DNA of 64,000 bases, taken from sequence record PZ347661.1. One strand, written 5' to 3'. The position numbers and the translations under genes were made by a program. How positions within the stretch are numbered: position 1 is the stretch's first letter; each line of letters begins with the position of its first letter. Positions 7,552 to 39,597 of the stretch are shown in pieces. The stretch comes from a phage. Below the pieces are notes generated by a model. The model did no database searches. It had not been told where the DNA came from and was given only the letters and a program-made list of their open reading frames with translations.

Positions 7552-7858
7552 CCCTGAAGTAATTCATAGTAAAACCGGTAAGGCTGTCCCGCTTAGTGAG
7601 ATTGCAGTAACTGGTGATATTGCTGCTTGTCCAGCTAACATCGCTTCTCTATGTATGTGCATTGCTGCATTAGCAGAAGAACGTAAATTATGGCTGGAAC
7701 CAAGCAAGGAGATGGTACTGGCTGGTATGTCTGAACTGAATGCTCTTCTGAAAGAAATGTATGACGAGAATGGGCAATTAGTTGAACCTACTGATGACCA
7801 AATTTCAGACACTGTAGTATTTGTACTACAAGCAATGGCGGAGAAACGAAATGGCTAA
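7544..7858 (+). CDS. hypothetical protein
   Basis: ORF with ATG at 7544 overlapping upstream stop. Confidence 0.35.
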   Translation: MINPEVIHSKTGKAVPLSEIAVTGDIAACPANIASLCMCIAALAEERKLWLEPSKEMVLAGMSELNALLKEMYDENGQLVEPTDDQISDTVVFVLQAMAEKRNG

Positions 7859-8045
7859 CGCTACAGTAAAAAACAAAAAACAATTCTCCATCACTATTGA
7901 TGGTTTATCTGAAGAAGATTTACTAATTCTGGCTAGTTTTATGCAAAACAGTCCTTTTGGTTACAGTCCTCATGAGGAACCGGAAAAAGAACGGGAATTA
8001 CGTAAAGTAATCTTTGAAGCCTGTAAATCGGCATTAGATTCTTAA
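7851..8045 (+). CDS. hypothetical protein
   Basis: ATG at 7851 overlapping upstream stop; 64 aa. Confidence 0.3.
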   Translation: MANATVKNKKQFSITIDGLSEEDLLILASFMQNSPFGYSPHEEPEKERELRKVIFEACKSALDS

Positions 8046-10657: not shown

Positions 10658-12694
10658 ATGAAAATCGAACTGATTTCTATCATCGCACTGGCAGTTGACA
10701 GTCGTAACCTTACACTGTGGAAGCCCGATGGCTCCACGCTTATATATCCTCAGAGCGATCCACGGGTTGCTCGTATTGTATCTGAAGCACAAACCAAAGG
10801 TCTGGGAACTACCAAAGACCAAATAGAAGTGAATATTGCACCAGAAGTAAACCTGCGTACTGAATATCTGGAAGCAGAGAAGAACACTAATGGATTCGTC
10901 CGTTTCTTCAAGGTAGCTAAAGCTAAACTTATGGAGTTCTTTCAGGATGGTACAGGTGTTCCTCCTGCACGTATCGTCTCAGATATTAAGCTGGGTAACC
11001 CTACTAAGACGTTGGTATCTAAAGCCATGGATACCTTCCTGGCTGTACAAGCTAATGAACCAGAAGTAACTGTAACAGATGGTTTCTACGACAGACGAGA
11101 CAACCTGATGTGGGTTACTGGCTGGGATAAGGACCATAACCATCCTGCACTGGTTCGTTTTATCAATGACGTACTGCGTTGTGGTTATGACCATACCAAC
11201 CGTACTCTTGCACAGGAATGGCCTATTGCAATTCGTGCAGTATCCGATGATGAAATGGGTGAGTTTGCTAAACAAGCTCAGCACATCAAAGGAGTACACA
11301 TTGTATTTACCAGTCGTGATGTAACGCCATTTCCTTACGTAGAAGTAGTTAAAACTACGAACCAGGATAAGCTGGCTGCCGCTTCTGAGAAGCTGGCTGC
11401 ATTGGGGGCTATTAGTACTGATGATGCTAACTTCCACACTGATGTGAAGGAAGATGAAGTGGTTGTTGCTGTTACCAACAATGGGGTTATCCCTGGAGTT
11501 GAGAACCTGCATCGTCACTTGCGTCAATCTGCTCAGCTGAAAGACTACAAGGGCTTTACTAAGTTCCTTGAGCGTCTGGCTCCGGTTATTAAAGACCGTC
11601 TGCACTCAGTAGAAGACCTGATGAAGTTCATGGAGACTGCTGAACTGCCTATTGCCGATGATGGTTCAATCCTGTTCCTCAAACGCCTTAAGTCTAGTGG
11701 TATAGAAAACGGTAAACGTGTATTCGTTGACTGTCACTCAGGTAACATTCGTCAATGGGTAGGCTGTAAAGTGCAGGTACGTGAAGACCTGGTAGACCCT
11801 GACCGTCGTCAGGATTGTTCTAACGGTCTGCACGTAGCATCCATGAGCTATCTACGTGGCTTCGGTGGTAACGTAACTATCCTTGGTAAAGTAGCACCGG
11901 AAGATGTATTTGCTGTTCCTGAGTACAGCACTAATAAGATGCGTGTATCTGCATATCATATTATTGCTGAGCTACCCGAAGAGGAACGTAATAACGTTAA
12001 CAACGGTATCTATCTTTCTAAAACTGAAGTAGGTAAAAAGCTACTTAATGATGCCATCGTTGGGAACCATAGTTCACCTACCACACTTATTATGGTTGGT
12101 GGTCATTATGGTACTAACCTCAAATACACCAATCTATCTTCTGGTTCCGTAGAACAATTCCGTACAGTTGCTAGTAAAGAAGCACTGAATATGGAAGAGT
12201 CACTGAATGAAGCTGTAGCTGCTGAACCAGTGAAAGCTACTGACCTTAAACCTATTAGTAAGAAGGCTCCTACTGTGAAAGAACAAATCCAGGAACTGGT
12301 TAAAGAGTTCCTTAATGCAACAACCCCTGAAGATAAGTTAGCTGCTGCTGACCTTCTGGTAGAACTGCGTGGTAAAGCTCGTAAGCCCTGGGGTGCATTC
12401 GACGTAGGTAGTGATGTAGTAGACGCTATTGCTACTATCCGTAGTACTCGCATTCCTGCACCAAAAGCTAAACCGGTGAAGGTAAGCAAACCTATTAAAA
12501 CTGCCCCTAAACCAATTAATGGAACACACGCTGATAATCTGCGTAGCATCCTGAACGATACGACGTACTCCGACTATCAGAAAGGCCATGCTCTGCAAGA
12601 CTATAAGCGTCATGCTAAGAAGTCATTCACTGCAATGGGTTTGACTGAAGAAGAAGCTAAATTAGCTACCAAACTGGTCAAAGCTGTTAAGTAA
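10658..12694 (+). CDS. rIIB: rIIB-like protein (putative)
   Basis: 678-aa ORF immediately downstream of the rIIA-like gene; assignment by synteny only. Confidence 0.45.
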   Translation: MKIELISIIALAVDSRNLTLWKPDGSTLIYPQSDPRVARIVSEAQTKGLGTTKDQIEVNIAPEVNLRTEYLEAEKNTNGFVRFFKVAKAKLMEFFQDGTGVPPARIVSDIKLGNPTKTLVSKAMDTFLAVQANEPEVTVTDGFYDRRDNLMWVTGWDKDHNHPALVRFINDVLRCGYDHTNRTLAQEWPIAIRAVSDDEMGEFAKQAQHIKGVHIVFTSRDVTPFPYVEVVKTTNQDKLAAASEKLAALGAISTDDANFHTDVKEDEVVVAVTNNGVIPGVENLHRHLRQSAQLKDYKGFTKFLERLAPVIKDRLHSVEDLMKFMETAELPIADDGSILFLKRLKSSGIENGKRVFVDCHSGNIRQWVGCKVQVREDLVDPDRRQDCSNGLHVASMSYLRGFGGNVTILGKVAPEDVFAVPEYSTNKMRVSAYHIIAELPEEERNNVNNGIYLSKTEVGKKLLNDAIVGNHSSPTTLIMVGGHYGTNLKYTNLSSGSVEQFRTVASKEALNMEESLNEAVAAEPVKATDLKPISKKAPTVKEQIQELVKEFLNATTPEDKLAAADLLVELRGKARKPWGAFDVGSDVVDAIATIRSTRIPAPKAKPVKVSKPIKTAPKPINGTHADNLRSILNDTTYSDYQKGHALQDYKRHAKKSFTAMGLTEEEAKLATKLVKAVK

Positions 12695-25021: not shown

Positions 25022-25845
25022 TCTGGTAGGTGGCTCAGAAGCTGCTGCTATTTGTGGTAGTGTTCATAATTCTGATGCTATTGCTTATCAGGATTCTGGA
25101 CGTGTCGGCTCCATACATAGCATTTATCATCACTGTGCTTATACTTTGGAAACTCAGTGATAAAAACGGTGGTGACAAGCCGCCAGACTAACAACAACCG
25201 AACCAGTGTGCAGGAATACTCTCCCCTGTGCATTGGTTCAACTGAGACTAATATGAACAAATTTACTATTCACTGGCTCAATGGAAAGGTTAGTTCTTTC
25301 ATGGGTGGAGAACCTGTTGAAGGAAAGAAAGCATTTCACATTGAATCAGAAGGCTGCAAAATCTTAATACCATACGCTTGGTATAAAGATGGTGAAGTAG
25401 AAGCATTAAAAAAGAGTAGTTAATATCGTGAAGGGTTCTGTTAGAATCCTTTGAGATAGGAACTCCTATCATAACCTTTCTTAACTTAATCTTTGCCGTA
25501 TGGCACTGACGCTAGGGGTGGCCCCCCATCCGTCAGGTAGACTATTTTAAGAATGGGTTATCACAGCAAATGTAAAGCAACATTCGGGTTAATCAATGGC
25601 CTCTCCCTATAGGGGCCATTTCTGAATCTTAGGCTATATCCCAAAGGTTAATATCTTTGGGATAAGGCTTCAGATCCCTTATCAACTAACCGCTCAATGT
25701 TGAGCATTTTAATCACATAAGCCCCTATATGGGCTGGGTTAAATGTCGGATAGCATAGCTACCTACAGCATCGAATTGTTAGGTCTTACATGCAAACTAA
25801 ATCATAGGGTAAAGAGGGACTCGTCCTCCCTCCCCTATTATAATG

Positions 25846-25915
25846 GTCGGGGTAGCGCGTAGGCATGTGCAGAAGGTCGCTACTTCTCTCGCTGGTTCGA
25901 ATCCAGCCCCCGACC
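25846..25915 (+). tRNA. tRNA-like gene, 70 nt, isotype uncertain
   Basis: Acceptor GTCGGGG/CCCCGAC 7 bp; T-arm GCTGG-TTCGAAT-CCAGC; D-stem GCGC/GTGC; anticodon stem AGAAG/CTTCT with loop GTCGCTA (possible CGC); short variable loop. Confidence 0.4.
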
Positions 25916-26466
25916 TACTGACATCCTATCAATGAGTACATTAGGCTAACGTGCGGAGGTTTACACTGTAGCCGGTGTAGGTGGAGAAGACGGCAGGATA
26001 GCTACCTGTGCTTAGTGTACTCTTTGATAGTTTTCGTAAGCGATTATGCGGTTTTTTAGAAACGAACCAATAACATAAATGCAAACGATGATGTTGTTCT
26101 GATGGCGGCGTAATAGCCTATAAGTCAGCAAGGTCTTCCGATTCCTTGTAAACAAATTCGGCGCAGTGGCCCGCTGTGATTAATAATGGGCACACAACAG
26201 GTAAGAGCATTTAGGCTACTGAGAAATCATCCGAGGCAATCAGACCTATCTTCTGTTAAGTGCTCTTTCCGTTGTGGTGAATGTGCAGGCTGATGCGCAG
26301 TGGGACGTGGCTGACTCACGAGGATGGCTCAAGCGAATAAGCAAGCTCGACGCCGCCGAATAAGCGCCTTATGCCGGAGATCAGTACCGGCCACCACAAC
26401 AAGTCCAGACGATATCTGAGTGACTATAAAAACAGATGGAGCCAGGTGGAATCCCTGGCAACTAAT

Positions 26467-26532
26467 TCCGGTGTAGGTACTAGTGTCGTGCACGGCATGA
26501 GTGTTCTGGTTCGAGTCCAGACGCCGGAACCA
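26467..26532 (+). ncRNA. tRNA-like minihelix element with encoded CCA
   Basis: TCCGGTG pairs with CGCCGGA; T-arm TCTGG-TTCGAGT-CCAGA; discriminator A then CCA; body only about 63 nt, too short for a full cloverleaf. Confidence 0.3.
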
Positions 26533-26534
26533 AT

Positions 26535-26658
26535 TACCAGTTGCACGAGATGGCTTGATATGTTCAAGTTTGGACTAAGTGTGACACCGCTAGATTGGAG
26601 AGCTGCTGCGGTAAGCTATAGACTCCAACCGGGGGTTCGAATCCCTCACTGGTAACCA
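26535..26658 (+). ncRNA. tRNA-like element with oversized body and encoded CCA
   Basis: TACCAGT pairs perfectly with ACTGGTA; T-arm GGGGG-TTCGAAT-CCCTC; discriminator A then CCA; about 121 nt between acceptor strands with internal hairpins. Confidence 0.3.
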
Positions 26659-27102
26659 ATTCAAAGTAGCATTGCACTAATCCATCCCGGAGTTCAAAGG
26701 CCAAACATGGAGCAGTGCTACTTTGAATTAGAAAGATTATGGGGGTAAGTCGTAACCATACGACGGCGTAAGTACCAGATGAGACTTCTGGACGCCCCTA
26801 CCAGATTTGGGGTGTAACAGTTAGATCCAGTTGCCGGAAGTGCTATTCTAGATACGCTGCCAATGTGTGAACGGTAAGGCTGTACAGGACTCGGACTCCC
26901 ACCTCAAACCAAAGTCGCCAGGTACTTATGGCAAACGGGTAGTAACGAACTAGTCATTCGTCAAACGCCCAACCTATTATGAGTCAGCAAGAACGCCTTC
27001 ACTTAAACTTAAACAAAAAAGCTTAACGCAATAATTATGTAGGGGTATGTAAGGATTGCGAAGAAGGAGCCAGTTAAAGTCTGGCATGGCTCAACCTATT
27101 AT

Positions 27103-27176
27103 GCCCACTTAGCTTAGACAGGGAAAGCAACCGACTAATAATCGGAAGGTCACTGGTTCAAATCCAGTAGTGGGTA
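27103..27176 (+). tRNA. tRNA gene, canonical cloverleaf, anticodon loop CTAATAA
   Basis: Acceptor GCCCACT/AGTGGGT; T8 A9; D-stem GCTT/AAGC with 9-nt loop containing GGG; anticodon stem CCGA/TCGG; 5-nt variable loop; T-arm ACTGG-TTCAAAT-CCAGT; 74 nt. Confidence 0.55.
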
Positions 27177-27491
27177 CTTATTTGCTGCAATATTCCCATA
27201 GGGAATGGTGCCGTATACGCCACCTAGTTTCTGGTGAAACTCCAGATGCAGCAATCCATTCAGCAGTAACATAGTCCTGATTGCATTGCACTCTAAAGAC
27301 AACACTGGTAAGACAGTCCAGTGACTGCTAATGTACTGTTATTCCCCTCGACGGGAATTTCGCTAGTGAAGGTAACACTTAAAAATCCAAACCTACGTCT
27401 TACTACTATCGGGCTATCAACCCACAGTCGCTTAACACACTAGTGGTAGTAGTTTGACGGCCTAGCCTCGTTAGCTGCGTTAAAGCTACTA

Positions 27492-27517
27492 AGTCCCTCT
27501 TCGGAGGGACTTTTTTA
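27492..27517 (+). terminator. rho-independent terminator
   Basis: AGTCCCTC-ttcg-GAGGGACT followed by TTTTTT. Confidence 0.75.
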
Positions 27518-27687
27518 TTTGAGTATTAATAAATGGATATTCAGGATGATTGACCTAATTTCTACTCCGTATGCCTATGAGGTAACGGATAACCGAGGAC
27601 ATAAGTACTTGGTATTTGCAGGTAGCGTAGCCTATAACAACGCAGTAATGTTTAAGTACAAACTCAAACCACTCTATGAGGCTAATA

Positions 27688-28068
27688 ATGGCAACAGTAA
27701 GTAAAGAAGCAATCGAAGCTAAGATTAAGAGCATTTACTTTTTCAATGGTGCTGACGCAGTGAAGTCTGCATTCGTTGATCCATCTGCACTTCCAGCAGA
27801 TGATTTGGCTAACCTGGGTCTGACAACTCATTGCATTATCATCCTGGAAAATGGATTCAAAGTTGAAGGCGTATCCGCCTGCGTAGACCCGGCTATCTAT
27901 GATGAGCAAAAAGGTCGTCAGTATGCATATGAAAATGCATTCAATAAGATTTGGGAATTAGAAGGTTATCTGCTACGTCAGGCACTGCATGAGAAAGAAG
28001 AGACTGCTAAAGCTCTGGCTTCCTTTGCAGAAAACAATACCTGTGATGGTGGTGGTTGTACAATCTGA
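27688..28068 (+). CDS. hypothetical protein
   Basis: ORF with start at MATVSKE (27688); 126 aa. Confidence 0.4.
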   Translation: MATVSKEAIEAKIKSIYFFNGADAVKSAFVDPSALPADDLANLGLTTHCIIILENGFKVEGVSACVDPAIYDEQKGRQYAYENAFNKIWELEGYLLRQALHEKEETAKALASFAENNTCDGGGCTI

Positions 28069-28187: not shown

Positions 28188-28679
28188 ATGTCAGAAGAAA
28201 TTAAAGTCCATTTCACCAATTATATCGGAACCAAGTGTGTAAATGGTTTCCCGATGAACAAAGAAACATACTGCAAACTTCGTGGCTGGAATGTACCTGC
28301 TAAAGAAGACCCACTAGAAGAAGGTTATTTAGTCGAGTACCCAGACTCTAAGTCCAACCATCCTCAGTTCCGTGGCTATATTAGCTGGTCACCTAAAGCT
28401 GCATTCGAAGCTGCATACCATGACGTAGAAAAAGGTTGTACCTTTGGTCATACAGTAGAGCTTCTCAAATCAGGCTTCAGAATGACCCGTAAAGGTTGGA
28501 ACGGAAAAGGAATGTATATCACCTTAGTATCTGGTGAAAATTGGGCCATGGATAAACATGAAAATACCGTTTGTGAGAAACGGGATTGGCTGGGTATTAA
28601 AACCGTTGATAACCAGTTTATGCCATGGGTTCCATCTCAATCAGATGTATTAGCAGAAGATTGGGTGTTAGCTCAGTAA
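28188..28679 (+). CDS. two-domain protein with C-terminal DUF2829 (Tad2-like) domain (putative)
   Basis: C-terminal TFGHTVELLKSGFRMTRKGWNGKGMYITLV ... PWVPSQSDVLAEDWVLAQ matches the DUF2829 pattern as recalled; N-terminal ~80 aa has no recognised motif. Confidence 0.45.
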   Translation: MSEEIKVHFTNYIGTKCVNGFPMNKETYCKLRGWNVPAKEDPLEEGYLVEYPDSKSNHPQFRGYISWSPKAAFEAAYHDVEKGCTFGHTVELLKSGFRMTRKGWNGKGMYITLVSGENWAMDKHENTVCEKRDWLGIKTVDNQFMPWVPSQSDVLAEDWVLAQ

Positions 28680-28713: not shown

Positions 28714-31700
28714 TTAGTTAGTGAGGTTGAGCCAAGGGTTCAGGTTATGAGCACGTAAGCCTTGACCGAAACCGAAGGAGTAACCAAGGTTGCCTTGTGC
28801 AGCAATGCTAAAGATGTTGTCCTGAATAGGCAGGCCAACGTTACCAAACATAGTAGGAGTTGGAGCCAGCATAGCCATAGCAGCATGTACAGGGTTGTTA
28901 CGAATCATGGACACTGCAACTTTTGCGGAACGAATCTTAAAGTTGTAGAACCACATAAGACCAACGCTTTCCATATAACCACGGAAGCGTCCTGGCAAAC
29001 GGTCATAGTTAATGAACTCTTCCGTCACACGTCCAAGTGCTTCTTCACGGGTTTTACCTTTACGCTTAGTCAGTTCATCATAGATGATCGCTTTAGCAAT
29101 AAAGTCAGAGTACTCAACCGTCTTCTGGATACCCTGGAAGAGAGCAGTATCCTTAGTGATAAGTGCATAACGACCTGCATTGCGTACAGACTTAGGCAGC
29201 TTATCAGCCAGCTTATCCATGTATTCGTGGAGTTTGCCCTCAGTAATCAGGATGTCATCACGTCCAATACCAGCATCTGCAATTGAGGAGAACTCACCTG
29301 CTTCTAGCAGAGGCCAGATACTCAAACGCTTATGACTATCCGTGATGGACTGAATCTCAGCTTTCAACTTACGAATCTGGTTCGGGTTAGTAGCTGCACG
29401 TAATTCTGCTTCTGCATCTACCTGACGTAAACGAGATTTCAGATACTGGTTAATCTCAGCAGTCTTCTGTGGAATGCTCTTAGCAATGTTCTTAACGGGT
29501 ACACCACGAGCAACCATCTGATAAAGGTTAGCCAGGAAGTTAACAGCAGGTACGACTACTGACTTAACTACAATCAGAGTCTTAGCTTCTTTAACTAAGT
29601 TTTGAACCAGGTTCTCACCACCCATTACATACTTGTAGGCACGGTTGCCGAATACACCCAACATAGCCTTCTTGAAGGTATCCAGCGTTTCTGGGGACCA
29701 ACGAGAATTACCAGACCAGGCATCACCAACGGAAGCTGCACGATAACCAAGAGCATCATTAAGCATGTCACGACGTACCCACAGCTCACCTGGGCCAAAC
29801 AGACTTTCTGCTTTCTGACGTGTTTCACTGTTCATCAGTTTAAGAGCATCGGCAGTTACTGGGTCCAGTTTAGAACCAAGAAGGTTAACGTACTGAGACT
29901 TATTAGAAGCAGACATCTTAATGTCGTTCTCATACATGCTATACAGATTCTCAATTAGCATATCGTTGAAACGCTGGGCCTTGGCCTCTTCTACCTGACG
30001 ACCACGCCATACACCAATTGCACGAGCAAGATGGTTCTCACCCTCAATGTGCTTCAGCATGTTAGGGTCAATGGATTGCTCATAAGCAACCACATTACCA
30101 TTGGCATCATATACAGGCAGAAGTGGTTCATTACCTCGTTCACCACGAGCCAGTGCTTTGGTGATACGGTCCACGGAAGGCTTGTCAGTAATACGACCTG
30201 CTACCATGGTTCCCATCGTAAAGCCTGTACCAAGGTCTACACCACCAGCAGTATTACGAACGTTCTGTAAGATACCCTGTGAGAATGGAGCCTGTGACTG
30301 TACTGGTGCAAAGTAGTAGCTACGTGCTGGACCACGATTAGCAGAGCTACCCTGATAAGTACCCAGACGTACATAAGACTTCTCAATCAAATCAGCAAAT
30401 TGATTATCTTCAGCAACAATCAGGTTAACACCTTGTTTGTTCTCACCAGGGATATACCCTTTGTACTGGTTCAAGGTTGCACGCGAATCAGACTTGGCTT
30501 TAGCCATTTCATCCTTACGTTGACCAACCAGGTAAGAAGTAGCAAAGTCCATACCTTCAATTTCTGTCTGAGCCAGTAAAGATAACATCTCACGGTCAGA
30601 TTTATTCATTGCTTCCAGTGCATACAGGGTAATGAGTTTATCCAGTTGAGCTACATCAACAACAGAGCGTGTAGTCTTACGCTCACCCAGCAAGCGTGAA
30701 ATTGCAGTAGCATTACGCAACAAGTTATTTCCGACTGTACCATTAATCATGTACTGAGCCAGTTGCTTAGATTTACGGCTAATCAGATGCCAGTTACGTC
30801 CTGCTTGTTTCTGCAAATCTGCTTCCAGTTTATTAACCTCACGGTCAACAATCTTCTGGTCAGACAACAGGTCACGAATTTCAGCCAGAGACATAGTGTC
30901 ACGCAGGACAGCTAAGTCAGTTTTACCCATACCGGTATGCATTGCTTTCCACTCAACATTAGTCAGCTTACGGCTGAACTTAGATGCGATAGTGGTAGGC
31001 AGGTGTTCACGGAACTGTTGACGGTCAGCCTGTACCTGTGCACGTACTGCTTTAATCAAATCATATACAGAAGCATTACTCTTAGTACGACCGATTATGT
31101 CATTAACCAGGTCATGGAACGGTTGCCATACTTTACCCTGGTTCATTGCAGCCATAACACCTTCAGCTACGATTGAACCATTCTTCTCTGTAGCAATAGC
31201 AGCTACCAGTTGTGCAGCATGAGCAGCACCTTTAACCAATGGGTTCTTGGTATTAGCTGCAACTTCACGAGCACCTTCCAAAGCACGGGTAGACAGTACA
31301 TCAATAGAATCCACCAGATACTGGTTAGCACGGTCAATAGCATTACCGGTAGGAGTAGCAACGGAATCATAGAAGGACTCTGCATTAAGACTGGTCTGCA
31401 TAATTGTCTGAGCTAGTGCATCCATACCTTCTTGTACGTTAGTGGCTTTAGTATCGCCTGCTACACGGGCATTCAGACTAGCCATTGCAGCAGTACCGAT
31501 GTTAGTCAGCATTGCATCAACAGTATTGCCTGACTTCTTATCTGCTTTCATAACAGGAATATCAGCCAGTACTTTACGTACCTCTTCACTTACCATTGCC
31601 AGACCAACAAAGGTAGGCAGCAAGGAAGAACGACCCTGTGCATCAAACTCAATGTTGTTAGCACCCATGATGGTATCGAACTTCTGCTGTGCATAGTAAC

Positions 31701-34700
31701 GGTCAGCAGGGTTAGTACTATCTGGGTCAGCCATGAACGATTCAACAGTTAGGTTCTTAGTAACGTGTGTGTAGTATTCCTGTGCACGAGCCATGGCAGC
31801 TGGGTTAATAGCAGCCTCGGTAGCCAGTGCAGCAACAATGTTAGTGAAGAGACGCTGTTCCTGCATATTCATGGTGAAGCCATGAGCCTGAACATCACGA
31901 GTTACTTTAGTTGCATTCACTACTGCATCAGAGAACTTACCTTTACGAATTACTTGCTGTACTGGTTCTGAACCAATGTAGTCAGTAATCAGTTTATCGA
32001 AGGTTTTTCCTAACTCTTCCAGACGAGTATTGTTACCGTATGCTTTGTTATGGAACAGGGTAGTGTCCTTAGCTACAGCAGCAGTAGGAGCCTGTCCACG
32101 CATAACTACAGCAGAGTTAAACAGTAAGCCAGAGAACATATCATCTGCATTAGACGGAGCTTTCTTACGTCCAAATACCAGGCGTTTGATTGCTTCATAT
32201 ACAGCCTGAGCCATAGCTTTAAGTGCAGTGGTTTTCTTCTGCTTACCAATCAGTTCACGGTTAGTTAAGCCCCAAGCCATGTACTCATTCAATGCAGCAG
32301 CTTTAGCCATTGCTGGTTCAATGAAGCCATTGGACAAGTGACCATTAATGGTATTCAGTGCATCAGCATATGCTTCACGTACTACCGGAGATTCATCCTT
32401 AACATCCAGAGTACGGAATTGGTTCATCAGGTCTTCAATATTCTGGACAGCTTCATTAGGAGTACCCTCATAGTGAGCCAGTACAGATTCAAAAGTAGAG
32501 GCATGTACTAATTCATGAACCAGAGTCTCTAAGGAAGGGGTAACTAAGTAGATGGTCTTATCTTCAAAGTTAGTCCAGCCATATGCATTACCAGCTTCAG
32601 CAGCTTCAATATCTTCCGGTGCAGGGCGAGTAATATTCTTCTCAATAGCGTAGGCATCCAGTTGAGAAGGTGTACCGTAAACAACCTTATAGTCTTTAGC
32701 AGCAAGAGATTTCTGTATTTCTTTCAATACTGCTTGCTGTTCAGGAGACATCTCTTTAGCCAGCTTAGTGATAGCAGTATTAGACAGCAGACGTACACCA
32801 GACTTCAGTACACGACCTACCTTCTCCATAGCTGGTACAACTTTCACCGGCACTTCCTTCACTGGTTCTGCCTTCGTTGGTTCCGCTTTAGCAGCACGTA
32901 CTGCTTCACGACGCTTGTTTAGTTCAGCATCAAACAGCTCGTTCAGCTTAGCTACTTGCTGGTCTACAGTCAGACCTTCCAGAGAGATTTTACCGTTGTT
33001 CACATAAGGAGCACCTACAGCAGCCATCTGGTCAACAGTGACCTGTACCTGGTCCATTACCTTGTGACGAATATCTACACCCAAAGCAATGTTACGCAGG
33101 TTACGCTCAATCAGTGCAATACCAGAATCTCTAATCATAGAAATTTTATAATCTCTATCACCATCTACTCTGGCAATATGAGCACGTTGCTCAAAGTCTA
33201 AAGCAGACTTTGCAATAGCATCTATTGCTGAATCGGACAGCTTATTTAAATCAACATTCTTAACAAACTTAGAGAAAGACTCATATACATTCTTGATAGG
33301 GTTACCCTGCCAGGAAGTATATACAGCCTCATTAGCTTTACGGCTTGCATCAGTAATGTCATTAATACCAATGTTCATACCATCAAAGATTTTCAGGGTA
33401 TTCTTCGGAGCACCTTTCATAGTAGAAAGAGTCTGCATCATCATGCCATCACCAGTACCGATGGTCATAAATGGAATACCTGCAACACCTGCTTGCGAAG
33501 GAGCATAGATGCTCATTGGCACACGCATACGGTCATCTAAGTTGGTGGCCAGTACTTGGTTAGCAACATCAGTGTTTTCACTACCAGCAATGTAGAAAGT
33601 CTGTGAGCCAGTCTTAATCATTGGAGCCAGTGGTGCTAAGCTATTCTGGATTTCATTCAGTTCTTTCTGTGTTAAGAAATCGCCTTTTTTCCATGTTGGG
33701 TCTTTTTCTTTTTCTGCCAGCTTAGCCTGTACTGCCTGTTGGAACATATCCTGCAATACCAGAGATTGTATCTGAGTAGCCTTCTGCAAGTTCTCAGTAG
33801 AGTGCATCAACCCTTCACCAACAGTAAATCGGATACCTTGTCTCATTGGCTCAACAAAGAAATGCAGCATATTCTCTTGTAAGTTCTTCAGAGCATCCCC
33901 GGATACGGTAAACTCCTGAGGATTTAACTCACCAGTCAGAACACCATCTACTTCCTTAATAAATAACCTACCTTTGCGTTTGGCTGGAATCTTGCCAGTC
34001 AATGCTTCCATAGAAGTAAGGAAGGTATCCAGCATAGCCTGAGCATCAGCTTCAGAAGCAGCCTCCTTACCAAACATCGCCATAGCTGGGGAAATGCTAG
34101 GGTCAGCAGCACGGGCTTTTAGAACGTCGCTTAAGCGTTCATAGATGGCGTCAGTAATTGCACTTACCATCTTGCCTGCAATACCGCGAGCACCAGAACC
34201 ATAAATGGTAATAGTCAGTGGGTTTTTAGCGATACCACGCTTCAGGTCCAGAGTACCATCTTCATTAAGATTGAAGTCTTTGATGAACAGGTCCATTAAC
34301 TTCTGGAGATGGTCCATCTGATTTATAATAGGAATATTTTTGCTGTAAGTATTGCGTAGTTCATTCAGATGGAATTGCAGACTATTGGTAGATGCTTCAT
34401 ACAGGTCAACATTATCATCCTGAGTATGATGCTCATTCATAGTCTTACCGGCTTTACCGAAGAACAAACCACCTTTAGCAGTATTCTTAATCCAGTTTGG
34501 GGTGAACTTACCACCAGTCATTAATACCATTGCGTTGATTGGCCCGTTGGTTACACCATCGGCTTCAACGTACAGTGGGGTATTAAAGTTGGCTCGGTCA
34601 TCACTGTTAAGGTAACGGGCATATTCCATAAGAGCCATGAGAGCTACAAATGATTTATCATTACCCAGAGATGTTCTCAGGATATCCACTGCGTCAGCAG

Positions 34701-37700
34701 GCAAGTATCCAGACTTATCAAACTCAACCATCATATCTACAGCAGGCTTCAGTTTACCTTCCAGAGCCTTGGTAAGTTCTTCTGACATAGTTTCACGAGT
34801 CATTTTATGAACTTTGATACCCAATGCCTGAGCCAGACCTAACTGGAAGCCAGAGAAGTCTTCATTGTTTTGGTTCGATAAATCCAGAGTAGCTTTAGTA
34901 GGTAAGATAGCCTCACGAACCAGCTTAGCTGATTGAGGATTGTATTTGCCCAACATCTGCATACGACCAACACGGGTCATATTGTAAGCATAGTGAATAG
35001 GTACAGAAGAAATGTCTTCACTCTGTGCTCTCACCTGTTCAATAACAGAGAACAGTTGGTTGTAAGAATCTTCTACAGAACGATTCTTACCTTCCAGAGA
35101 TTTAGCATGGTTCTTATTAAGTAAATCCTTATCCAGAGTACCTGCACCCATCAGTTCAAGGATACGGTCTTTACCTAATGCTTCATAGAACTGAACCATT
35201 GGAGTATGTACAAAGAACTCAGTAGCCTGTTCTGCTTTAAGAGCAGCTTTCTGTTCTGGAGTATTACGGACAGCAGGGTTACGTAACTGAGTAGGAGCCA
35301 CTGAAGGAATATCATCACCCAGGTACAATTTCTCTTCTGGTTCTACGAGGACAGCTTCCTCGATAGCAGTAGGGAATTTGTTAATGGCATCGTTATCATC
35401 CAGTTTCTCAATGGTATACAGACCAATAGTCTTATTAGATTCTGGGTCAATTTCAGACACATCAAGCATAGACTCTTTAACTTCACCCATCTCAATGAGA
35501 GAAGACAGAATCTCTGTAGCCATTGCCATTGGAATACCTTTGGTATAACCCAATGGTGCATCAGCATTACGATTAAGTCCCCAATAAGATTCAATCTTTT
35601 GAGCCAGTGAGTTAGTAGCTTCTACTAAGGTTTGTGCATTCTCAAATTCTGCGAGGATGCCCTCTGGTAACAAGGAAGCATTTACACCAGTAATTGCAGC
35701 CACATCCTGCATGTCTTTAATAGCAGCATTCTGTGTAGCAGTAAGTCGCCATTGCAGACCAGCAAGTACAGCAGTCTCTAATAACTGGTCATTGAACTTA
35801 AAGGTATCACCATCTTTCTCTACGATGTTAAGCAGTTTGCCACCTACCCAACGGTTAGCCTCAGTACCCTCTGCAAAACGTTTACCAACATTCTTGTTAG
35901 CAAGGAACTTAGCCAGACGATCAGACAGAGTAGTCTTCAGAGTTTCACCAAAATCAAATAAGTCCTGGTAACGCTTAATCACATCACTTGTGAGAGCGTT
36001 ATTTTCTCTTTGAGTGAATGCTTCAAAACGAGCAGCAGAAGACAATGCTTTCTTAACATCAGTCAAAGGAGATTCAGAACCAATGGTACGAGACTTAGGT
36101 TCTTCTGGAAGAGAAAATGCTTTAAGGAACTGGTTCGGTGTCTTGTCGTTGTTATAGACAGGGAACACTGTTTCTATTCCCGATAGAGGTTTACCGCCAA
36201 CGGTATAGTCTGCTTTCAGTTGAGCCAGTGATACTTCTTCCTTCTCGACGTTATTGGTATTAAGCCCAGATGTATCTACACCAATCTGAATCAGTGCATT
36301 GTTTGCTTCTACGAATGATTGAACAGTATTAAATTGTTCCGGGGTCAGCTTCTGGTTATCAAACAGTTGCAAAGATACAAATGGTTGTTCACTACCTTTG
36401 TAGAAGGTAGAGCGAATAGCACCAGTATCTAAAGACATATCACGATAACCATCATGACCAAATACATCAGACAGACTGATATGGTCACCATTAGAACCAA
36501 CAACAGTACCATCAGCAAAGAGCCATGGACTTTCCCTACGGTCACCATACTTATTAAGAGTATCTTGTGAAATAGTATTCTCTTTCACATAAGAATCTCT
36601 TTCAGATTCAGTAGGCTGTTCAACGGTATCCTGTTTTTCAGACTGGTTCTCAGGTTCTTTTACAGTCTGTGGTTTAGACTCTTTATTAGTAGGTTCTGTT
36701 TTAACAGCTTCACTAACAGAGGGTTTAGTCTGTACAGTAGGGGTAACTGGTTCCTGTTTCGTAACAGGAGTTTCATCAACCTGATTCACTGGTTCATTGG
36801 TCTGTTGGGATTGAGCAGCATCAAGATTGCCCTGACGGAACTCTTTAACTACCTGGGCAGCAGGCTTGTCCAGACGTGAATCCAATGGGGTAACTTTCAC
36901 ATGAGAAACATTAAGCTCCGGGTAAGCCGTAGCAAGTGCGTTAGCAATATCAGCTACGGTCTTGGCTTCCAGTCCTACTTGCTGGGCAAACTTAACAGAC
37001 TTGGTATCATACGGATTGACACCGAGGCCAGTACGACTACGTACCCATTCACGCGAGGGAGTAAGAGCCTGATAATGGACAGACTTATTCTTATCCGCAT
37101 TCCCAGAAATCAGATGCTCATTCAACGCTCCGACCTTATTCTGCATGTGCTGGGCGAACTTCATAAAGTCGTCGAGATAAGCGGAAGCCAAATCGAAGTT
37201 ACCAGAGTTGTACGCAGAACGAATGCGTTTAGCATGTTGCAACGCAGAGTACTGGCCTTCATTAGAACGAGATTCGTCGGTTTTAATTTGTTTACTAACA
37301 ATGTCTTGAGGACGTAAGCCTAGTTCTTCTGCTTTAGCGTCAAATTCTCGTGCTCCTTGCAATAGAGCAGCAGCAGATTGCAGGGCAGCACGCTGACGAT
37401 TCCCCAGTGTAATCTTACCTTCACTCGCATGTTTCAGAACCATGTTCACTGAATCTGCATCCAGTACTTCTGGAGACACATCAGCAGCCATAGCAATATT
37501 GTTTGCCTGGGCTTGGTTAGCTTCTTCAGTAGCTTTCAGTTTACCTGCTTCAGCCTGTTCCTGAATCATGGAATGAATGGCACGGAATGCACGGAGTACT
37601 TTCGGTGTATTCTGAACATTAGCCATCAGGCCGGAGAACTGGTCAACGATATTAGCAGCAGGAGAACCCTGTTCCAGATTAGCTAATGCACCTGGGTCAC

Positions 37701-39531
37701 GGTTAATGAAGCTATCCATAGACATGATGTTGTCATACATCTGGATTGCAGCTTCCATTTGAACGTTAGGGTCTTCAGCAGTATTAACCAGGTCAGCCAT
37801 CTTCTGAATAGCTTCAACACGGTTAGTGGAACCAGAAACAGCTTCACGGATTGCAGGACTAGCTTGTTCCAGTTCTACTGGGTCAAACTTCATTGCCTGA
37901 GTTAAGTCAGCAGCATACTGAGTAGCAGCAGCTTTCTCTTCAGGAGAAATATCCATTGCATCTACTGCTTCCTGAACAGTTGCTTGTGCTTGTTCTGCCT
38001 GAGCAGTAGCTTCCTGTGCAGCAGCGTTAACTGTAGCATCTGATACAGGGGATGCTTGTTCATTACGCTTAGCAACTTCTTCTCCACGTTGAACCAGAAT
38101 GTTAGTAATAGGTGAAGCTACTTTTGCTAATGCCTTACCAGCCAGAGAAGCACCAGCCAAGGTAGTACGTACAGCAGGACCAACGGCAGCACCAGCAGCC
38201 TTAACAGTTGCACCAGGAGCTTGAGCAACTCCAGCAGAACCGAAGCCGTACAGTGCACCCAGACCTGCTTGCTCACCAACACCTTTGAGGATGTCACGAG
38301 ATGCATCAACATTACCTTGGATTGCCTTGTTCTGTGCAAACTGACTTGTACCAGACTGGATACCTTCTTCTACAGTCTCACGCAGCATGTTGGAACCAGC
38401 ACCAGCCAGTGAACCTACCTTAAGTGGATTAAGTTCAAACTTGGATACCAATGGAGCAGTAAGAGCAGCAACTGGAGCAGTTAAACCAGCAGCAGTGATA
38501 CCTGTTTCAGATGCAGTCTGACGTCGTGCCTCTTCAGGAGTTAAGCCGTCTTTAATGTGTTGTTGGTATACAGGAGATTTAGCAGCCAGTTCACTGAATG
38601 GCATTTCCATAATTTCATTGGCAGTCTGTTGATATGCACCACCAGCTTCCATACCACCAATTGCTATAGCAGGTGCAGCAATACGACCAGCAGTCTGTGC
38701 AATCCGTGCAGGACGTGAACCTAACTCAGCAGCTAAGGTAATACCCTTAACAGCTTTGTCCCCACCTACCATTACTTTACCAAGTGCGGATACACCACGG
38801 ATAAGTGGACCACCAGTGAAGAGAGAACCAACGCCTTCAGCCAGACCATCTGTAGCAGCCATGCCATTGGACAAGGTATTAGCAACAGAATCATAAGCAT
38901 CCCGACCAATTCGAGACAGAGAAGCAACGAGTTCACTTTCTCCTTTAGCAATATCCTGCTTATAGAGTTTCTCATTTTCCTGTGCAGATATTACGTTCTG
39001 GTTCTGTACTACATTACGACGAGCATTCAGTGCATCAGACTGTAGGTTGTGTACACCTTTATTCAACCAGTCAAGACCGGAAGCAATGGATGCCCCGGCA
39101 TTATCATTGACCAAGCCTGTGCCAAGAGCAGCAATGCCCCCAAGGGTATTAGCAACACCAAGACCAACACCAGAAAGGGTATCACCAAGTGCTTCACCAT
39201 ATGTGCGACTCTTAGTTAAATCACGACGAACAGCATTAGCTGCATTGACACGAGCATTGAGAATGTCCATTCCTTGCTCATTGCCATACTTGTTTACGAT
39301 TTCAAGAGGGGAGGCATTAGTAAAATCTGCCTGAATAGAACCTGGGTCAAATGCACCAGCACCTAAGTCACCGGCACGTCCTGCCTGTAATTGGTAAGCG
39401 TTCTGAGAAGTTAATTGGAAAGGGTTTTGCCCTTGTTCAGCTTGTTTCCGAGAGGTTGCAGTAGAGACATCGACTTGCTTAGCAGTAGTGATGCTGTCTG
39501 CGAAACCTGCCAGACGGTCAAATGTTGACAT
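28714..39531 (-). CDS. virion-encapsidated RNA polymerase (N4 vRNAP-like giant protein)
   Basis: About 3600-aa ORF at the head of the late block; central region has single-subunit RNAP-like motifs (VEADGVTNG, KNPLTITIYGSGARG, KIFDGMN); ATG at 39531 with AGGA RBS, alternative TTG at 39549. Confidence 0.85.
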   Translation of the reverse strand: MSTFDRLAGFADSITTAKQVDVSTATSRKQAEQGQNPFQLTSQNAYQLQAGRAGDLGAGAFDPGSIQADFTNASPLEIVNKYGNEQGMDILNARVNAANAVRRDLTKSRTYGEALGDTLSGVGLGVANTLGGIAALGTGLVNDNAGASIASGLDWLNKGVHNLQSDALNARRNVVQNQNVISAQENEKLYKQDIAKGESELVASLSRIGRDAYDSVANTLSNGMAATDGLAEGVGSLFTGGPLIRGVSALGKVMVGGDKAVKGITLAAELGSRPARIAQTAGRIAAPAIAIGGMEAGGAYQQTANEIMEMPFSELAAKSPVYQQHIKDGLTPEEARRQTASETGITAAGLTAPVAALTAPLVSKFELNPLKVGSLAGAGSNMLRETVEEGIQSGTSQFAQNKAIQGNVDASRDILKGVGEQAGLGALYGFGSAGVAQAPGATVKAAGAAVGPAVRTTLAGASLAGKALAKVASPITNILVQRGEEVAKRNEQASPVSDATVNAAAQEATAQAEQAQATVQEAVDAMDISPEEKAAATQYAADLTQAMKFDPVELEQASPAIREAVSGSTNRVEAIQKMADLVNTAEDPNVQMEAAIQMYDNIMSMDSFINRDPGALANLEQGSPAANIVDQFSGLMANVQNTPKVLRAFRAIHSMIQEQAEAGKLKATEEANQAQANNIAMAADVSPEVLDADSVNMVLKHASEGKITLGNRQRAALQSAAALLQGAREFDAKAEELGLRPQDIVSKQIKTDESRSNEGQYSALQHAKRIRSAYNSGNFDLASAYLDDFMKFAQHMQNKVGALNEHLISGNADKNKSVHYQALTPSREWVRSRTGLGVNPYDTKSVKFAQQVGLEAKTVADIANALATAYPELNVSHVKVTPLDSRLDKPAAQVVKEFRQGNLDAAQSQQTNEPVNQVDETPVTKQEPVTPTVQTKPSVSEAVKTEPTNKESKPQTVKEPENQSEKQDTVEQPTESERDSYVKENTISQDTLNKYGDRRESPWLFADGTVVGSNGDHISLSDVFGHDGYRDMSLDTGAIRSTFYKGSEQPFVSLQLFDNQKLTPEQFNTVQSFVEANNALIQIGVDTSGLNTNNVEKEEVSLAQLKADYTVGGKPLSGIETVFPVYNNDKTPNQFLKAFSLPEEPKSRTIGSESPLTDVKKALSSAARFEAFTQRENNALTSDVIKRYQDLFDFGETLKTTLSDRLAKFLANKNVGKRFAEGTEANRWVGGKLLNIVEKDGDTFKFNDQLLETAVLAGLQWRLTATQNAAIKDMQDVAAITGVNASLLPEGILAEFENAQTLVEATNSLAQKIESYWGLNRNADAPLGYTKGIPMAMATEILSSLIEMGEVKESMLDVSEIDPESNKTIGLYTIEKLDDNDAINKFPTAIEEAVLVEPEEKLYLGDDIPSVAPTQLRNPAVRNTPEQKAALKAEQATEFFVHTPMVQFYEALGKDRILELMGAGTLDKDLLNKNHAKSLEGKNRSVEDSYNQLFSVIEQVRAQSEDISSVPIHYAYNMTRVGRMQMLGKYNPQSAKLVREAILPTKATLDLSNQNNEDFSGFQLGLAQALGIKVHKMTRETMSEELTKALEGKLKPAVDMMVEFDKSGYLPADAVDILRTSLGNDKSFVALMALMEYARYLNSDDRANFNTPLYVEADGVTNGPINAMVLMTGGKFTPNWIKNTAKGGLFFGKAGKTMNEHHTQDDNVDLYEASTNSLQFHLNELRNTYSKNIPIINQMDHLQKLMDLFIKDFNLNEDGTLDLKRGIAKNPLTITIYGSGARGIAGKMVSAITDAIYERLSDVLKARAADPSISPAMAMFGKEAASEADAQAMLDTFLTSMEALTGKIPAKRKGRLFIKEVDGVLTGELNPQEFTVSGDALKNLQENMLHFFVEPMRQGIRFTVGEGLMHSTENLQKATQIQSLVLQDMFQQAVQAKLAEKEKDPTWKKGDFLTQKELNEIQNSLAPLAPMIKTGSQTFYIAGSENTDVANQVLATNLDDRMRVPMSIYAPSQAGVAGIPFMTIGTGDGMMMQTLSTMKGAPKNTLKIFDGMNIGINDITDASRKANEAVYTSWQGNPIKNVYESFSKFVKNVDLNKLSDSAIDAIAKSALDFEQRAHIARVDGDRDYKISMIRDSGIALIERNLRNIALGVDIRHKVMDQVQVTVDQMAAVGAPYVNNGKISLEGLTVDQQVAKLNELFDAELNKRREAVRAAKAEPTKAEPVKEVPVKVVPAMEKVGRVLKSGVRLLSNTAITKLAKEMSPEQQAVLKEIQKSLAAKDYKVVYGTPSQLDAYAIEKNITRPAPEDIEAAEAGNAYGWTNFEDKTIYLVTPSLETLVHELVHASTFESVLAHYEGTPNEAVQNIEDLMNQFRTLDVKDESPVVREAYADALNTINGHLSNGFIEPAMAKAAALNEYMAWGLTNRELIGKQKKTTALKAMAQAVYEAIKRLVFGRKKAPSNADDMFSGLLFNSAVVMRGQAPTAAVAKDTTLFHNKAYGNNTRLEELGKTFDKLITDYIGSEPVQQVIRKGKFSDAVVNATKVTRDVQAHGFTMNMQEQRLFTNIVAALATEAAINPAAMARAQEYYTHVTKNLTVESFMADPDSTNPADRYYAQQKFDTIMGANNIEFDAQGRSSLLPTFVGLAMVSEEVRKVLADIPVMKADKKSGNTVDAMLTNIGTAAMASLNARVAGDTKATNVQEGMDALAQTIMQTSLNAESFYDSVATPTGNAIDRANQYLVDSIDVLSTRALEGAREVAANTKNPLVKGAAHAAQLVAAIATEKNGSIVAEGVMAAMNQGKVWQPFHDLVNDIIGRTKSNASVYDLIKAVRAQVQADRQQFREHLPTTIASKFSRKLTNVEWKAMHTGMGKTDLAVLRDTMSLAEIRDLLSDQKIVDREVNKLEADLQKQAGRNWHLISRKSKQLAQYMINGTVGNNLLRNATAISRLLGERKTTRSVVDVAQLDKLITLYALEAMNKSDREMLSLLAQTEIEGMDFATSYLVGQRKDEMAKAKSDSRATLNQYKGYIPGENKQGVNLIVAEDNQFADLIEKSYVRLGTYQGSSANRGPARSYYFAPVQSQAPFSQGILQNVRNTAGGVDLGTGFTMGTMVAGRITDKPSVDRITKALARGERGNEPLLPVYDANGNVVAYEQSIDPNMLKHIEGENHLARAIGVWRGRQVEEAKAQRFNDMLIENLYSMYENDIKMSASNKSQYVNLLGSKLDPVTADALKLMNSETRQKAESLFGPGELWVRRDMLNDALGYRAASVGDAWSGNSRWSPETLDTFKKAMLGVFGNRAYKYVMGGENLVQNLVKEAKTLIVVKSVVVPAVNFLANLYQMVARGVPVKNIAKSIPQKTAEINQYLKSRLRQVDAEAELRAATNPNQIRKLKAEIQSITDSHKRLSIWPLLEAGEFSSIADAGIGRDDILITEGKLHEYMDKLADKLPKSVRNAGRYALITKDTALFQGIQKTVEYSDFIAKAIIYDELTKRKGKTREEALGRVTEEFINYDRLPGRFRGYMESVGLMWFYNFKIRSAKVAVSMIRNNPVHAAMAMLAPTPTMFGNVGLPIQDNIFSIAAQGNLGYSFGFGQGLRAHNLNPWLNLTN

Positions 39532-39597
39532 AGCATGATTCCTGTTCAAACTTATATCGTATAAGAAGATTCACTGTACAGTAAGTGAATGTAAGAG

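Follow-up and report, generated by a model that had tools for sequence, protein, structure and literature searches.

The locus

We analysed a window of 64,000 nucleotides (nt) from a phage genome (sequence record PZ347661.1; all positions below are those of this stretch), in which two adjacent elements resembling transfer RNAs (tRNAs), element 1 (E1) and element 2 (E2), lie on the plus strand. They fall within a stretch of ~2 kb without credible genes (~25470-27520), which forms an array of tRNA and small RNA (sRNA) genes. A 3.5-kb query around the elements is 90-95% identical to N4-type coliphages of the G7C/ECBP1/Bp4 group (Schitoviridae, Gamaleyavirus), and an open reading frame (ORF) of 3,611 codons on the minus strand (28714-39549) occupies the position of the virion RNA polymerase gene in N4. 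The array is limited on one side by a gp47-like ORF and on the other by a strong intrinsic terminator (27491-27520, plus strand) with a 9-base-pair (bp) stem followed by a U tract. In N4-like phages the corresponding array is placed between the gp47-like gene and the gp48/gp49-like genes, and in N4 itself this interval holds tRNA-Asn, tRNA-Ser, tRNA-Thr, an ‘undetermined’ tRNA call and tRNA-Pro.

E1 and E2 were first noticed in the letters alone as neighbouring tRNA-like elements with odd body lengths, a description that the sequence matches (66 nt and 124 nt). The original prediction also gave both elements perfect acceptor pairing. All seven positions do pair in each case, although the stem of E1 includes a U6.G67 wobble. 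From their anatomy, conservation, covariation, modularity and exclusion from known families, which were observed directly and are described below, we conclude with considerable confidence that E1 and E2 are genuine genes for tRNA-like, non-decoding RNAs and are under selection.

Anatomy and conservation of element 1

E1 (26467-26532, plus strand) is a 66-nt tRNA mimic with no D stem and no anticodon, and it ends in an encoded ACCA. Read from the 5′ end, the acceptor strand UCCGGUG (26467-26473) finds its partner in CGCCGGA (26522-26528). It is followed by U8-A9 and a 7-nt loop, GGUACUA (together 26474-26482), which replaces the D arm, keeps the GG and is invariant in 9/10 variants; no strand complementary to this segment was found by folding or in the alignment of variants. 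Next comes a central hairpin (26483-26498) whose 5-bp stem, GUGUC/GGCAU, shows compensatory changes in three of its five pairs. Its palindromic loop, GUGCAC (26488-26493), is invariant, measuring 6 nt in the window and in N4 and 7 nt (GUGCACA) in KP8, IME11, cp20 and 05F01. A connector of 6-7 nt across variants, here GAGUGU, leads to the T arm UCUGG-UUCGAGU-CCAGA (26505-26521), in which 100% of cells are paired and two pairs have changed in compensation. The discriminator A73 and the encoded CCA (26529-26532) follow the 3′ acceptor strand and are invariant in 10/10 variants. The canonical T arm, the A-CCA end and the 29 nt between A9 and the T stem can thus be read directly, as had been claimed.

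In an alignment of 10 distinct E1 variants, 98.2% of cells are paired, compared with 23-47% when the partners are slid, and five pairs in all are compensatory, the three already noted for the central stem plus two of the T arm helix. RNAalifold independently recovers the identical three helices from these variants. The acceptor is nearly invariant, its only departure being the change of U6.G67 to C6.A67 in cp20 and 05F01; even with these two phages included, 5/7 pairs do not vary. Moreover, E1 is identical between this phage and N4, whereas the flanking genes are 68-86% identical. Variable positions avoid loops and core, as they do in E2. A covariance model built for this element (R1) scores true E1 copies at 85-96 bits and ordinary tRNAs at no more than 32 bits.

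Anatomy and conservation of element 2

E2 (26535-26658, plus strand) is a 124-nt RNA that looks tRNA-derived and is predicted to fold as a four-way junction, again with an encoded ACCA; its definition draws on anatomy, the chance scan described below and 8 variants. The acceptor strand UACCAGU (26535-26541) pairs at 7/7 positions with ACUGGUA (26648-26654), and an eighth pair, U-A, is possible between 26534 and 26655. Arm 1 (26542-26583; pair probabilities 0.5-0.97) consists of an outer helix, UGCAC/GUGUG, a short AG/CU helix and an apical hairpin, GGCUUGA-UAUGU-UCAAGUU (26552-26570). The apical hairpin carries one compensatory and two one-sided changes, and the outer helices do not vary. An 11-nt linker, ACACCGCUAGA (26584-26594), is predicted to be single-stranded and is identical in 17/18 copies, the single A-to-T change occurring in a metagenomic copy (L121). 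Arm 2 (26595-26628; pair probability 0.78-0.98) combines UUGGAG/CUCCAA with an AGCU/AGCU helix and has one variable column only, an A/G change that keeps A-U or G.U. It is followed by the T arm GGGGG-UUCGAAU-CCCUC (26631-26647), with one compensatory pair (G-C to A-U) and one mismatch in KP8, and by the discriminator A73 and encoded CCA (26655-26658), kept in 16/18 copies. All the parts listed in the original prediction are present, namely the canonical T arm, the A-CCA end and an interior of ~90 nt with a CUUGA-UAUGU-UCAAG hairpin and a UUGGAG...CUCCAA helix. Two long arms in this interior replace the D and anticodon arms, and E2 as a whole is ~48 nt longer than a tRNA.

The linker and the start of arm 2, ACACCGCUAGA(G)UUGGAGAGCU, match a phage tRNA-Tyr across its acceptor end and D arm, for which reason E2 looks tRNA-derived. 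Energy calculations favour the four-way junction of acceptor, arm 1, linker, arm 2 and T arm over a fold with a D-like arm (-36.8 versus -30.5 kcal/mol); the 3-bp GCU/AGC D-like arm comes out 6.3 kcal/mol worse, with a pair probability of 0.0.

Among the 8 variants, 99.7% of cells are paired, compared with 25-49% in slid controls, and five pairs show compensatory changes, of which three belong to the acceptor and one each to the T stem and the arm 1 apical hairpin. The acceptor changes affect both sides of 3/7 pairs (UAUCAGU/ACUGAUA and UACUGGU/ACCAGUA), so that acceptor complementarity, whose conservation among relatives the original prediction had made its test, is indeed kept. A core of 60 nt (26572-26631) is invariant except for the pair-keeping A/G column and the one A-to-T change in one metagenomic copy. 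Covariance model R2 gives 150-157 bits on true E2 copies and no more than 30 bits on tRNAs. Divergent copies of E2 were sought in IMG/VR and metagenomes, and only near-identical cores were returned. Also, no enriched complement of the E2 linker that might mark targets was found in the 64-kb window.

E1 and E2 share with RF00005 the 7-bp acceptor, the discriminator base, the 3′ CCA and the T arm, defined as a 5-bp stem with a 7-nt UUCRANY loop. A D arm (3-4 bp stem, GG-containing loop) is lacking in both: E1 has only the 7 nt of GGUACUA, and the D-like alternative in E2 is disfavoured. A canonical anticodon arm has a 5-bp stem and a 7-nt loop with Y32, U33 and R37. The E1 loop has 6 nt here and in N4, and the 7-nt variants read G32-U33-GCA-C37-A38; direct reading of the E2 interior allows no 5-bp/7-nt arm to be drawn. 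Judged from sequence, neither element has a usable anticodon arm and neither would be able to decode.

Chance, and exclusion from known classes

A scan of both strands of the 64 kb required, within 60-135 nt, full pairing of acceptor (7/7) and T stem (5/5), a TTCRANT loop and N-CCA. Exactly two sites were found in the window, E1 and E2, and 100 dinucleotide shuffles yielded no site. Taken by itself, folding energy is unremarkable for the two elements (the minimum free energy (MFE) z-score of E1 is -2.2), and their support comes from the comparative data.

Standard tools do not recognise either element. ARAGORN makes no call on E1 or E2, calling only tRNA-Ala(CGC) at 25845-25916 and tRNA-Ile(AAU) at 27103-27177, and Rfam at its gathering threshold detects tRNA-Ile alone. 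Rfam searches at E<=10 on progressively smaller slices (381 nt for 26380-26760) gave no match to E1 or E2. On these grounds we rejected the tRNA, tRNA-Sec, tmRNA (transfer-messenger RNA), mitochondrial tmRNA, intron and Y RNA families. In the GenBank records of some relatives, tRNAscan-SE has labelled E1 only ‘tRNA-Undet’ or ‘tRNA-OTHER’, and E2 is unannotated or lies under a spurious coding sequence in every record among the matches listed.

Several more specific identities were also considered and rejected. E1 is not a tmRNA reduced to its tRNA-like domain (TLD), since the gene of this kind from mycobacteriophage DS6A, used as a control, is found by the Rfam tmRNA model and has G3:U70, and E1 shows neither. 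Both E1 and E2 instead have C3-G70, which does not vary in E1 and is replaced in E2 by U3-A70 only. No reading frame resembling a tmRNA tag was found inside E1 or E2; the tag frame at 26081-26113 belongs to a separate, independently occurring module described below. A group I intron would interrupt a tRNA with at least ~200 nt that include a P1-P9 core, as a rule within the anticodon loop, whereas the ~48 extra nt of E2 are divided over two arms and match no intron family. Of the earlier suggestion of a tRNA with an insertion or intron, the part that survives is therefore that E2 looks tRNA-derived; intron families are unmatched, and the extra sequence is too short for group I. The alternative suggestion of a permuted or split tRNA is not supported, as each element has its acceptor strands in normal order and its T arm abutting the 3′ strand.

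Host origin was rejected as well, because nothing similar to the elements occurs in 5,426 E. coli genomes. A scan for the E1 pattern in 185,579 species genomes (one per bacterial species) gave one chance match, which R1 rejects. A search of IMG/VR for a wider E1 family without the GUGCAC loop, using the pattern GTAGGTAC...GGTTCGANTCC, returned 94 loci; beyond known E1, all are ordinary tRNAs carrying that string in the D loop, and the wider family was discarded. No description of E1 or E2 was found in the literature on tRNA-like RNAs of N4-like phages, phage tRNA-like decoys and phage tmRNA-like RNAs. E1 and E2 belong to the non-decoding tRNA-like small RNAs of phage tRNA clusters, and their architectures are new.

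Distribution and modularity

BLAST places E1 in N4 and other Enquatrovirus phages, in Gamaleyavirus and in Kaypoctavirus. Two further copies, 75-77% identical, come from Klebsiella phage cp20 (Efbeekayvirus) and from the 147-kb Stephanstirmvirinae phage 05F01; in both, tRNA-Tyr lies on one side of E1 and the next tRNA on the other, with CCA-AAU spacers of the usual kind between them. E2 is hosted by Gamaleyavirus and KP8-like phages and by ten metagenomic contigs. Together the elements match 72 phage records, all of them N4-like except 05F01, and a U precedes each element at position -1. N4, IME11 and others have only E1, while PhAPEC7, F22, Mimir124 and E20 have only E2. The order is swapped in KP8, where E2 precedes E1, and in VTCCBPA_322 a different tRNA-like element of 129 nt occupies the E1 position. 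These arrangements mark E1 and E2 as separate modules of a mosaic array, not halves of one gene.

ARAGORN calls none of the oversized tRNA-like elements, 117-138 nt long, that occur within the tRNA arrays of VTCCBPA_322 and of unrelated large-phage contigs. Their acceptor has 7-8 bp, their T arm is canonical, and they often carry N-CCA or N-CAA. They lie at 4113-4230 (minus strand) of L032, at 12029-12145 and 12520-12645 (both minus) of L039, at 7749-7886 and 8788-8915 (both minus) of L079, at 608-735 (plus) of L095 and at 1436-1564 (plus) of L021. tRNA-shaped genes that are expanded or lack an anticodon may be a general overlooked feature of phage tRNA clusters.

Spacers, neighbouring genes and other RNAs of the array

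In N4-like phages E1 is accompanied by a conserved module (26402-26466, plus strand) with the hairpin GCCAGG-UGGAAUC-CCUGGC. Taken together with E1, it is 96.3% identical to N4, and it is missing upstream of E1 in cp20 and 05F01. Directly 3′ of E2 lies a long near-perfect hairpin (26659-26735, plus strand) with a 17-bp outer stem, likely a processing spacer; in other phages its counterparts come after whichever tRNA-like element is last. Such hairpins, with stems of 17 to >30 bp, also separate RNA genes in N4 (2594-2700 and 2790-2880 of locus L002), where one long stem carries a T arm cap, UUAGG-UUCGAAU-CCUAA. They look like RNase III-type processing sites.

A further recurring signal is the motif (CAA)CCTATTAT, which has three plus-strand copies in the array (25834-25841, 26973-26980 and 27095-27102) and one elsewhere in the 64 kb. 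Each array copy ends 0-3 nt ahead of a G that is the first base of an RNA. The motif directly precedes tRNA-Ile, precedes the tRNA-Ala-like element after an extra AAT, and in PBM-3 precedes the tag RNA described below. It could be a phage promoter of the N4 RNAPII type or a processing signal. Downstream of the array lie a gene of the Phage_gp49_66 family (27676-28068) and a gene with a domain like Tad2 (Thoeris anti-defence 2) (28188-28679), and anti-CRISPR proteins are annotated in this interval in some relatives.

Other RNAs of the array are unusual in their own ways. In the ‘tRNA-Ala(CGC)’, U3-A70 takes the place of G3:U70. This element also has U37 and a variable loop of 3 nt; its score stays under the Rfam tRNA threshold, and it is labelled Cys, Thr or Ala across GenBank relatives. 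tRNA-Ile has an AAU anticodon (A34). CCA is encoded in neither of these genes, unlike in E1 and E2. A third closed structured RNA of ~105 nt (26806-26911) has a terminal stem, UUGGGGUG/CACCUCAA, followed by ACCA. Its body is 96.8% identical in N4, where the stem reads GUGGGAUG/CAUCCCAC, with two compensatory changes, and is followed by CUCC in place of ACCA. Right after tRNA-Ile, a cloverleaf-like element of 77 nt (27182-27258) has the terminal stem UUGCUGC/GCAGCAA, then U-CCA, and three hairpins including UCUGG-UGAAACU-CCAGA; it gives a weak match to R1 (15.9 bits).

A tmRNA-like tag RNA in the same array

The array also contains, 380 nt upstream of the elements, a widespread but unannotated tmRNA-like ‘tag RNA’ (~25917-26392; tag frame 26081-26113). 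A resume-codon context, AUAAAU-GCA, is followed by the 10-codon frame ANDDVVLMAA*. The frame is conserved between phages through synonymous changes (GCG GCG, GCT GCT and GCA GCC; GTT/GTA; TAA/TGA), and other alleles read ANEEAYLMVA, ANDDLMMVAA (P1), ANEEMYLAVA (HK620 and pYD38-A) and ANDNVFLAVA (Moogle). Rfam gives only sub-threshold matches to tmRNA_permuted and beta_tmRNA, including a PK2-like knot, and ARAGORN makes no call; the tag RNA has no recognisable tRNA-like domain. Comparison with E. coli ssrA revealed no similarity beyond GCAAACGA, and the tag RNA is absent from the phage ssrA genes listed in a published survey (PMC4131195).

The tag module is present in 385 phage records, spanning Schitoviridae, Ackermannviridae, siphoviruses of ~47 kb, Mooglevirus, P1-like phages and HK620, and in 697 E. 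coli RefSeq records; among the E. coli matches listed almost all have no annotation beneath. In Bas80, pYD38-A and Moogle the tag RNA adjoins tRNA genes and has its own promoter of the TTGACA-17-TAGATT (sigma-70) type. Other copies lie at 1744-2013 of L004, 1490-1650 of L111, 1500-1870 of L112, 700-1075 of L126 and 700-1060 of L129. In KP8 (L004 1668-1743 and 1979-2013) the tag RNA ends in a 7-bp hairpin, UCCCCGU...ACGGGGA-A-CCA, whose stem is identical to the acceptor stem of the tRNA-like gene directly upstream of it. The hairpin of E20, CUCCCGU...ACGGGGG-G-CCA, is compensated relative to that of KP8. This RNA may outweigh E1 and E2 in importance.

Probable processing and a possible role as tRNA mimics

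On balance, we lean towards the view that E1 and E2 are independent, tRNA-derived phage sRNA genes that are matured like tRNAs and act as non-decoding mimics. The tRNA-mimic option of the original prediction fits all features, namely the conserved minihelix, the U at -1, the ACCA, the spacing of a tRNA array and the lack of a decoding arm. Both retain what the tRNA maturation machinery reads: acceptor and T arm stacked over 12 bp, a T loop of canonical form, a GG as possible elbow partner, the U at -1 and the encoded ACCA. Because this RNase P recognition set is combined with tRNA-type spacers and hairpins, excision as stable CCA-ended RNAs would be expected, and we consider tRNA-like processing of E1 and E2 probable.

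In such a scheme RNase P would cut the array transcript at 26467 and 26535, and the 3′ ends would be trimmed to the encoded CCA, possibly aided by cleavage in the flanking long hairpins. The products would be stable RNAs of ~66 nt and ~124 nt that cannot read codons. Each would present a tRNA-like acceptor end and elbow together with an invariant module (for E1 the GUGCAC loop, for E2 the 60-nt core) to a partner that is presumably a tRNA-binding protein. Selection on the acceptor sequence, on GGUACUA and GUGCAC in E1 and on the core of E2 points to sequence-specific protein recognition. In the version we favour, the RNAs would be decoys or competitors for a host tRNA-directed enzyme, such as a defence nuclease, a toxin, or a processing or charging enzyme. 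A decoy is preferred because of the mosaic accessory distribution, the transfer between phage families and the anti-defence neighbourhood, yet a decoy or mimic function remains a tentative proposal, possible rather than probable.

A number of points weigh against this view. Processing, stability and function are inferred for E1 and E2 by analogy with the rules of tRNA maturation, and the near-identity of many copies could come partly from recent horizontal spread instead of constraint. No candidate protein partner was identified, and the putative link to anti-defence comes only from the neighbourhood and the mosaic, accessory-like distribution. For E2, the core does not vary and its inner helices are therefore beyond a covariation test, leaving thermodynamic prediction as the basis of the four-way fold, with an MFE z-score of only -1.0. 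Finally, UCA replaces CCA in two metagenomic E2 copies, so that an encoded CCA is not absolutely required.

Alternative explanations

One alternative is that E1 and E2 are punctuation only, functionless in themselves, their tRNA-like shapes directing the RNase P and 3′ exonuclease cuts that free the tag RNA, tRNAs and sRNAs. tRNA punctuation is an established principle in organelles, E2 begins 2-3 nt past the N-CCA end of the tag RNA in KP8 and E20, and both elements are embedded among CCA-AU tRNA-like spacers and long hairpins. However, punctuation needs the acceptor/T-arm minihelix alone, and it leaves unexplained the invariance of the E1 GUGCAC loop and GGUACUA over four genera, the nearly invariant 60-nt core of E2, and the identity of E1 between N4 and this phage when flanking genes differ by 14-32%. 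We consider it unlikely, though less so than any other alternative. A second idea makes one or both elements chargeable adaptors without anticodons, which would be aminoacylated and deliver an amino acid without codon reading, for example as a tRNA-like domain supplied in trans to the TLD-less tag RNA in a split phage form of trans-translation. The presence of the ANDDVVLMAA* tag RNA in the same array, with its synonymous changes between phages and no recognisable tRNA-like domain, is in its favour. Among the loci examined, every N4-like phage bearing the tag RNA had E1 or E2, and the nearly invariant E1 acceptor is as expected of identity determinants. On the other hand, G3:U70, the defining alanine identity of tmRNA, was not found on direct reading in E1, E2 or the whole array, and Rfam tmRNA models that give the DS6A TLD-only gene 43 bits do not match either element. 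The two distributions also differ, with the tag module in 385 phage records versus 72 for E1/E2 and with N4, cp20 and 05F01 carrying E1 without the tag RNA, and base pairing between the tag RNA and E1 or E2 was limited, by eye, to short, non-conserved matches, none convincing. Adaptors of this kind thus seem improbable, and a split trans-translation or tagging system of the tag RNA with E1 and/or E2, independent of the G3:U70/AlaRS rule, somewhat more so. A weaker version would have E1 and E2 compete with host tmRNA or tRNAs for EF-Tu, SmpB or entry to the ribosomal A site.

The elements might also be decaying tRNA pseudogenes, former tRNA genes whose D or anticodon arms are gone and which survive by chance in an array prone to recombination. 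The array is a mosaic with other odd tRNAs, tRNA-Ala(CGC) with U3-A70 and tRNA-Ile(AAU), relatives yield ‘???’ calls, and the E2 interior resembles the D arm of tRNA-Tyr. Covariation largely refutes decay, as all testable helices are maintained by compensatory substitutions; moreover, E1 is better conserved than neighbouring protein genes and is kept in phages of different families, and variable positions avoid loops and cores. We give this idea little credence. Still less plausible is that E2, or E1 and E2 jointly, become a decoding tRNA through intron removal or trans-joining. The ~48 nt by which E2 exceeds a tRNA and the adjacency of the elements in this phage would suit such a scheme, but no group I or other intron family is matched, the E2 interior forms no 5-bp/7-nt anticodon arm, each element closes its own acceptor stem, and the two occur apart and in either order; we also know of no tRNA-splicing endonuclease pathway in E. 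coli. Lastly, an ORF of 94 codons (26371-26655) is open across both elements in the window, and the annotations of nithesis and UE-S5a place hypothetical proteins there. Its substitution pattern rules it out as spurious, with 12/17 of the variable positions in E2 at codon positions 1-2 and a stop in the KP8 variant. E1 also shifts in length by 1-2 nt, and relatives have the elements in another order or lack them. The chance that this ORF is a real feature is negligible.

Significance

Phage tRNA arrays are now regarded as a front line of the phage-host arms race; their products replace cleaved tRNAs and neutralise PARIS and retron effectors. Should E1 and E2 be decoys for tRNA-directed enzymes, RNA-based counter-defence would gain a new class. 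Even as processing signals only, they reveal recurrent tRNA-shaped phage genes that are missed by standard tRNA finders, and more such missed genes appeared in unrelated large-phage contigs. Both are found in genetically tractable coliphages, where the GUGCAC loop of E1 and the 60-nt core of E2 offer mutational targets.

Comparison with known systems

Among vertebrate RNAs, mascRNA and the MEN-beta RNA are ~60-nt molecules cut from a longer transcript by RNase P and RNase Z and bearing a CCA end; their anticodon loop is poorly conserved and they are not known to be aminoacylated. Their sequences are unrelated to those of E1 and E2, and they acquire CCA post-transcriptionally, not from the gene as E1 and E2 do. 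The metazoan mitochondrial tRNA-Ser and other mitochondrial tRNAs lacking a D arm share the outline of E1, with an acceptor, a D-replacement loop, a 5-bp stem-loop and a T arm. However, these tRNAs decode, have 7-nt anticodon loops and use dedicated elongation factors, while the host of E1 is a bacterium and its loop has 6 nt in N4 and this phage, the 7-nt forms carrying G32 and C37. YrlA, a non-coding RNA resembling Y RNA and also present in phages, has a tRNA-mimicking module with a T arm, a D arm and an acceptor-like stem (PMC4201824). Its ends form a Ro-binding helix, in contrast to those of E1 and E2, which form an acceptor and then ACCA and have no Rfam match.

The nearest published idea is the TLD-only mini-tmRNA of mycobacteriophage DS6A. 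Like E1, it is phage-encoded, of similar size (83 versus 66 nt), and made of an acceptor and T arm with a short hairpin for the anticodon arm and no coding part. It differs in having G3:U70, a tmRNA D-loop motif and a score of 43.2 bits on Rfam tmRNA; E1 has C3-G70 and a tRNA-type U8-A9-GG and matches no tmRNA model at E<=10, and R1 misses the DS6A gene. For a TLD-like molecule similar to the DS6A sequence, strong inhibition of tmRNA is reported, perhaps through titration of SmpB (PMC4131195, PMC11915505).

The closest analogues in context and size are RNAC and RNAD of phage T4, made from the T4 tRNA region and with a role that is still not known (PMC3014915, PMC9697503). Like E1 and E2, RNAC (species 1, 139 nt) and RNAD (species 2, 119 nt) are non-decoding, lie co-oriented within a phage tRNA cluster (in T4 at its end), and, at ~120-140 nt, are of the size of E2. 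RNAC has a canonical T arm near its 3′ end, CCGGG-UUCGAAU-CCCGG, as E1 and E2 do, and the RNAD sequence continues into ...GCGCACCA. Homology was rejected, however, since nothing matches beyond the T arm: R1 and R2 find only that of RNAC (11.9 bits, E=3.6) and T4 tRNAs. E1 and E2 also have clean 7-bp acceptors and an encoded ACCA, whereas the MFE fold of RNAC shows only weak pairing of its ends. With these two T4 RNAs, non-decoding tRNA look-alikes of phage tRNA arrays became known in the 1970s. Compared with them, E1 and E2 offer a cleaner study case, being short, sharply defined, strongly conserved and modular.

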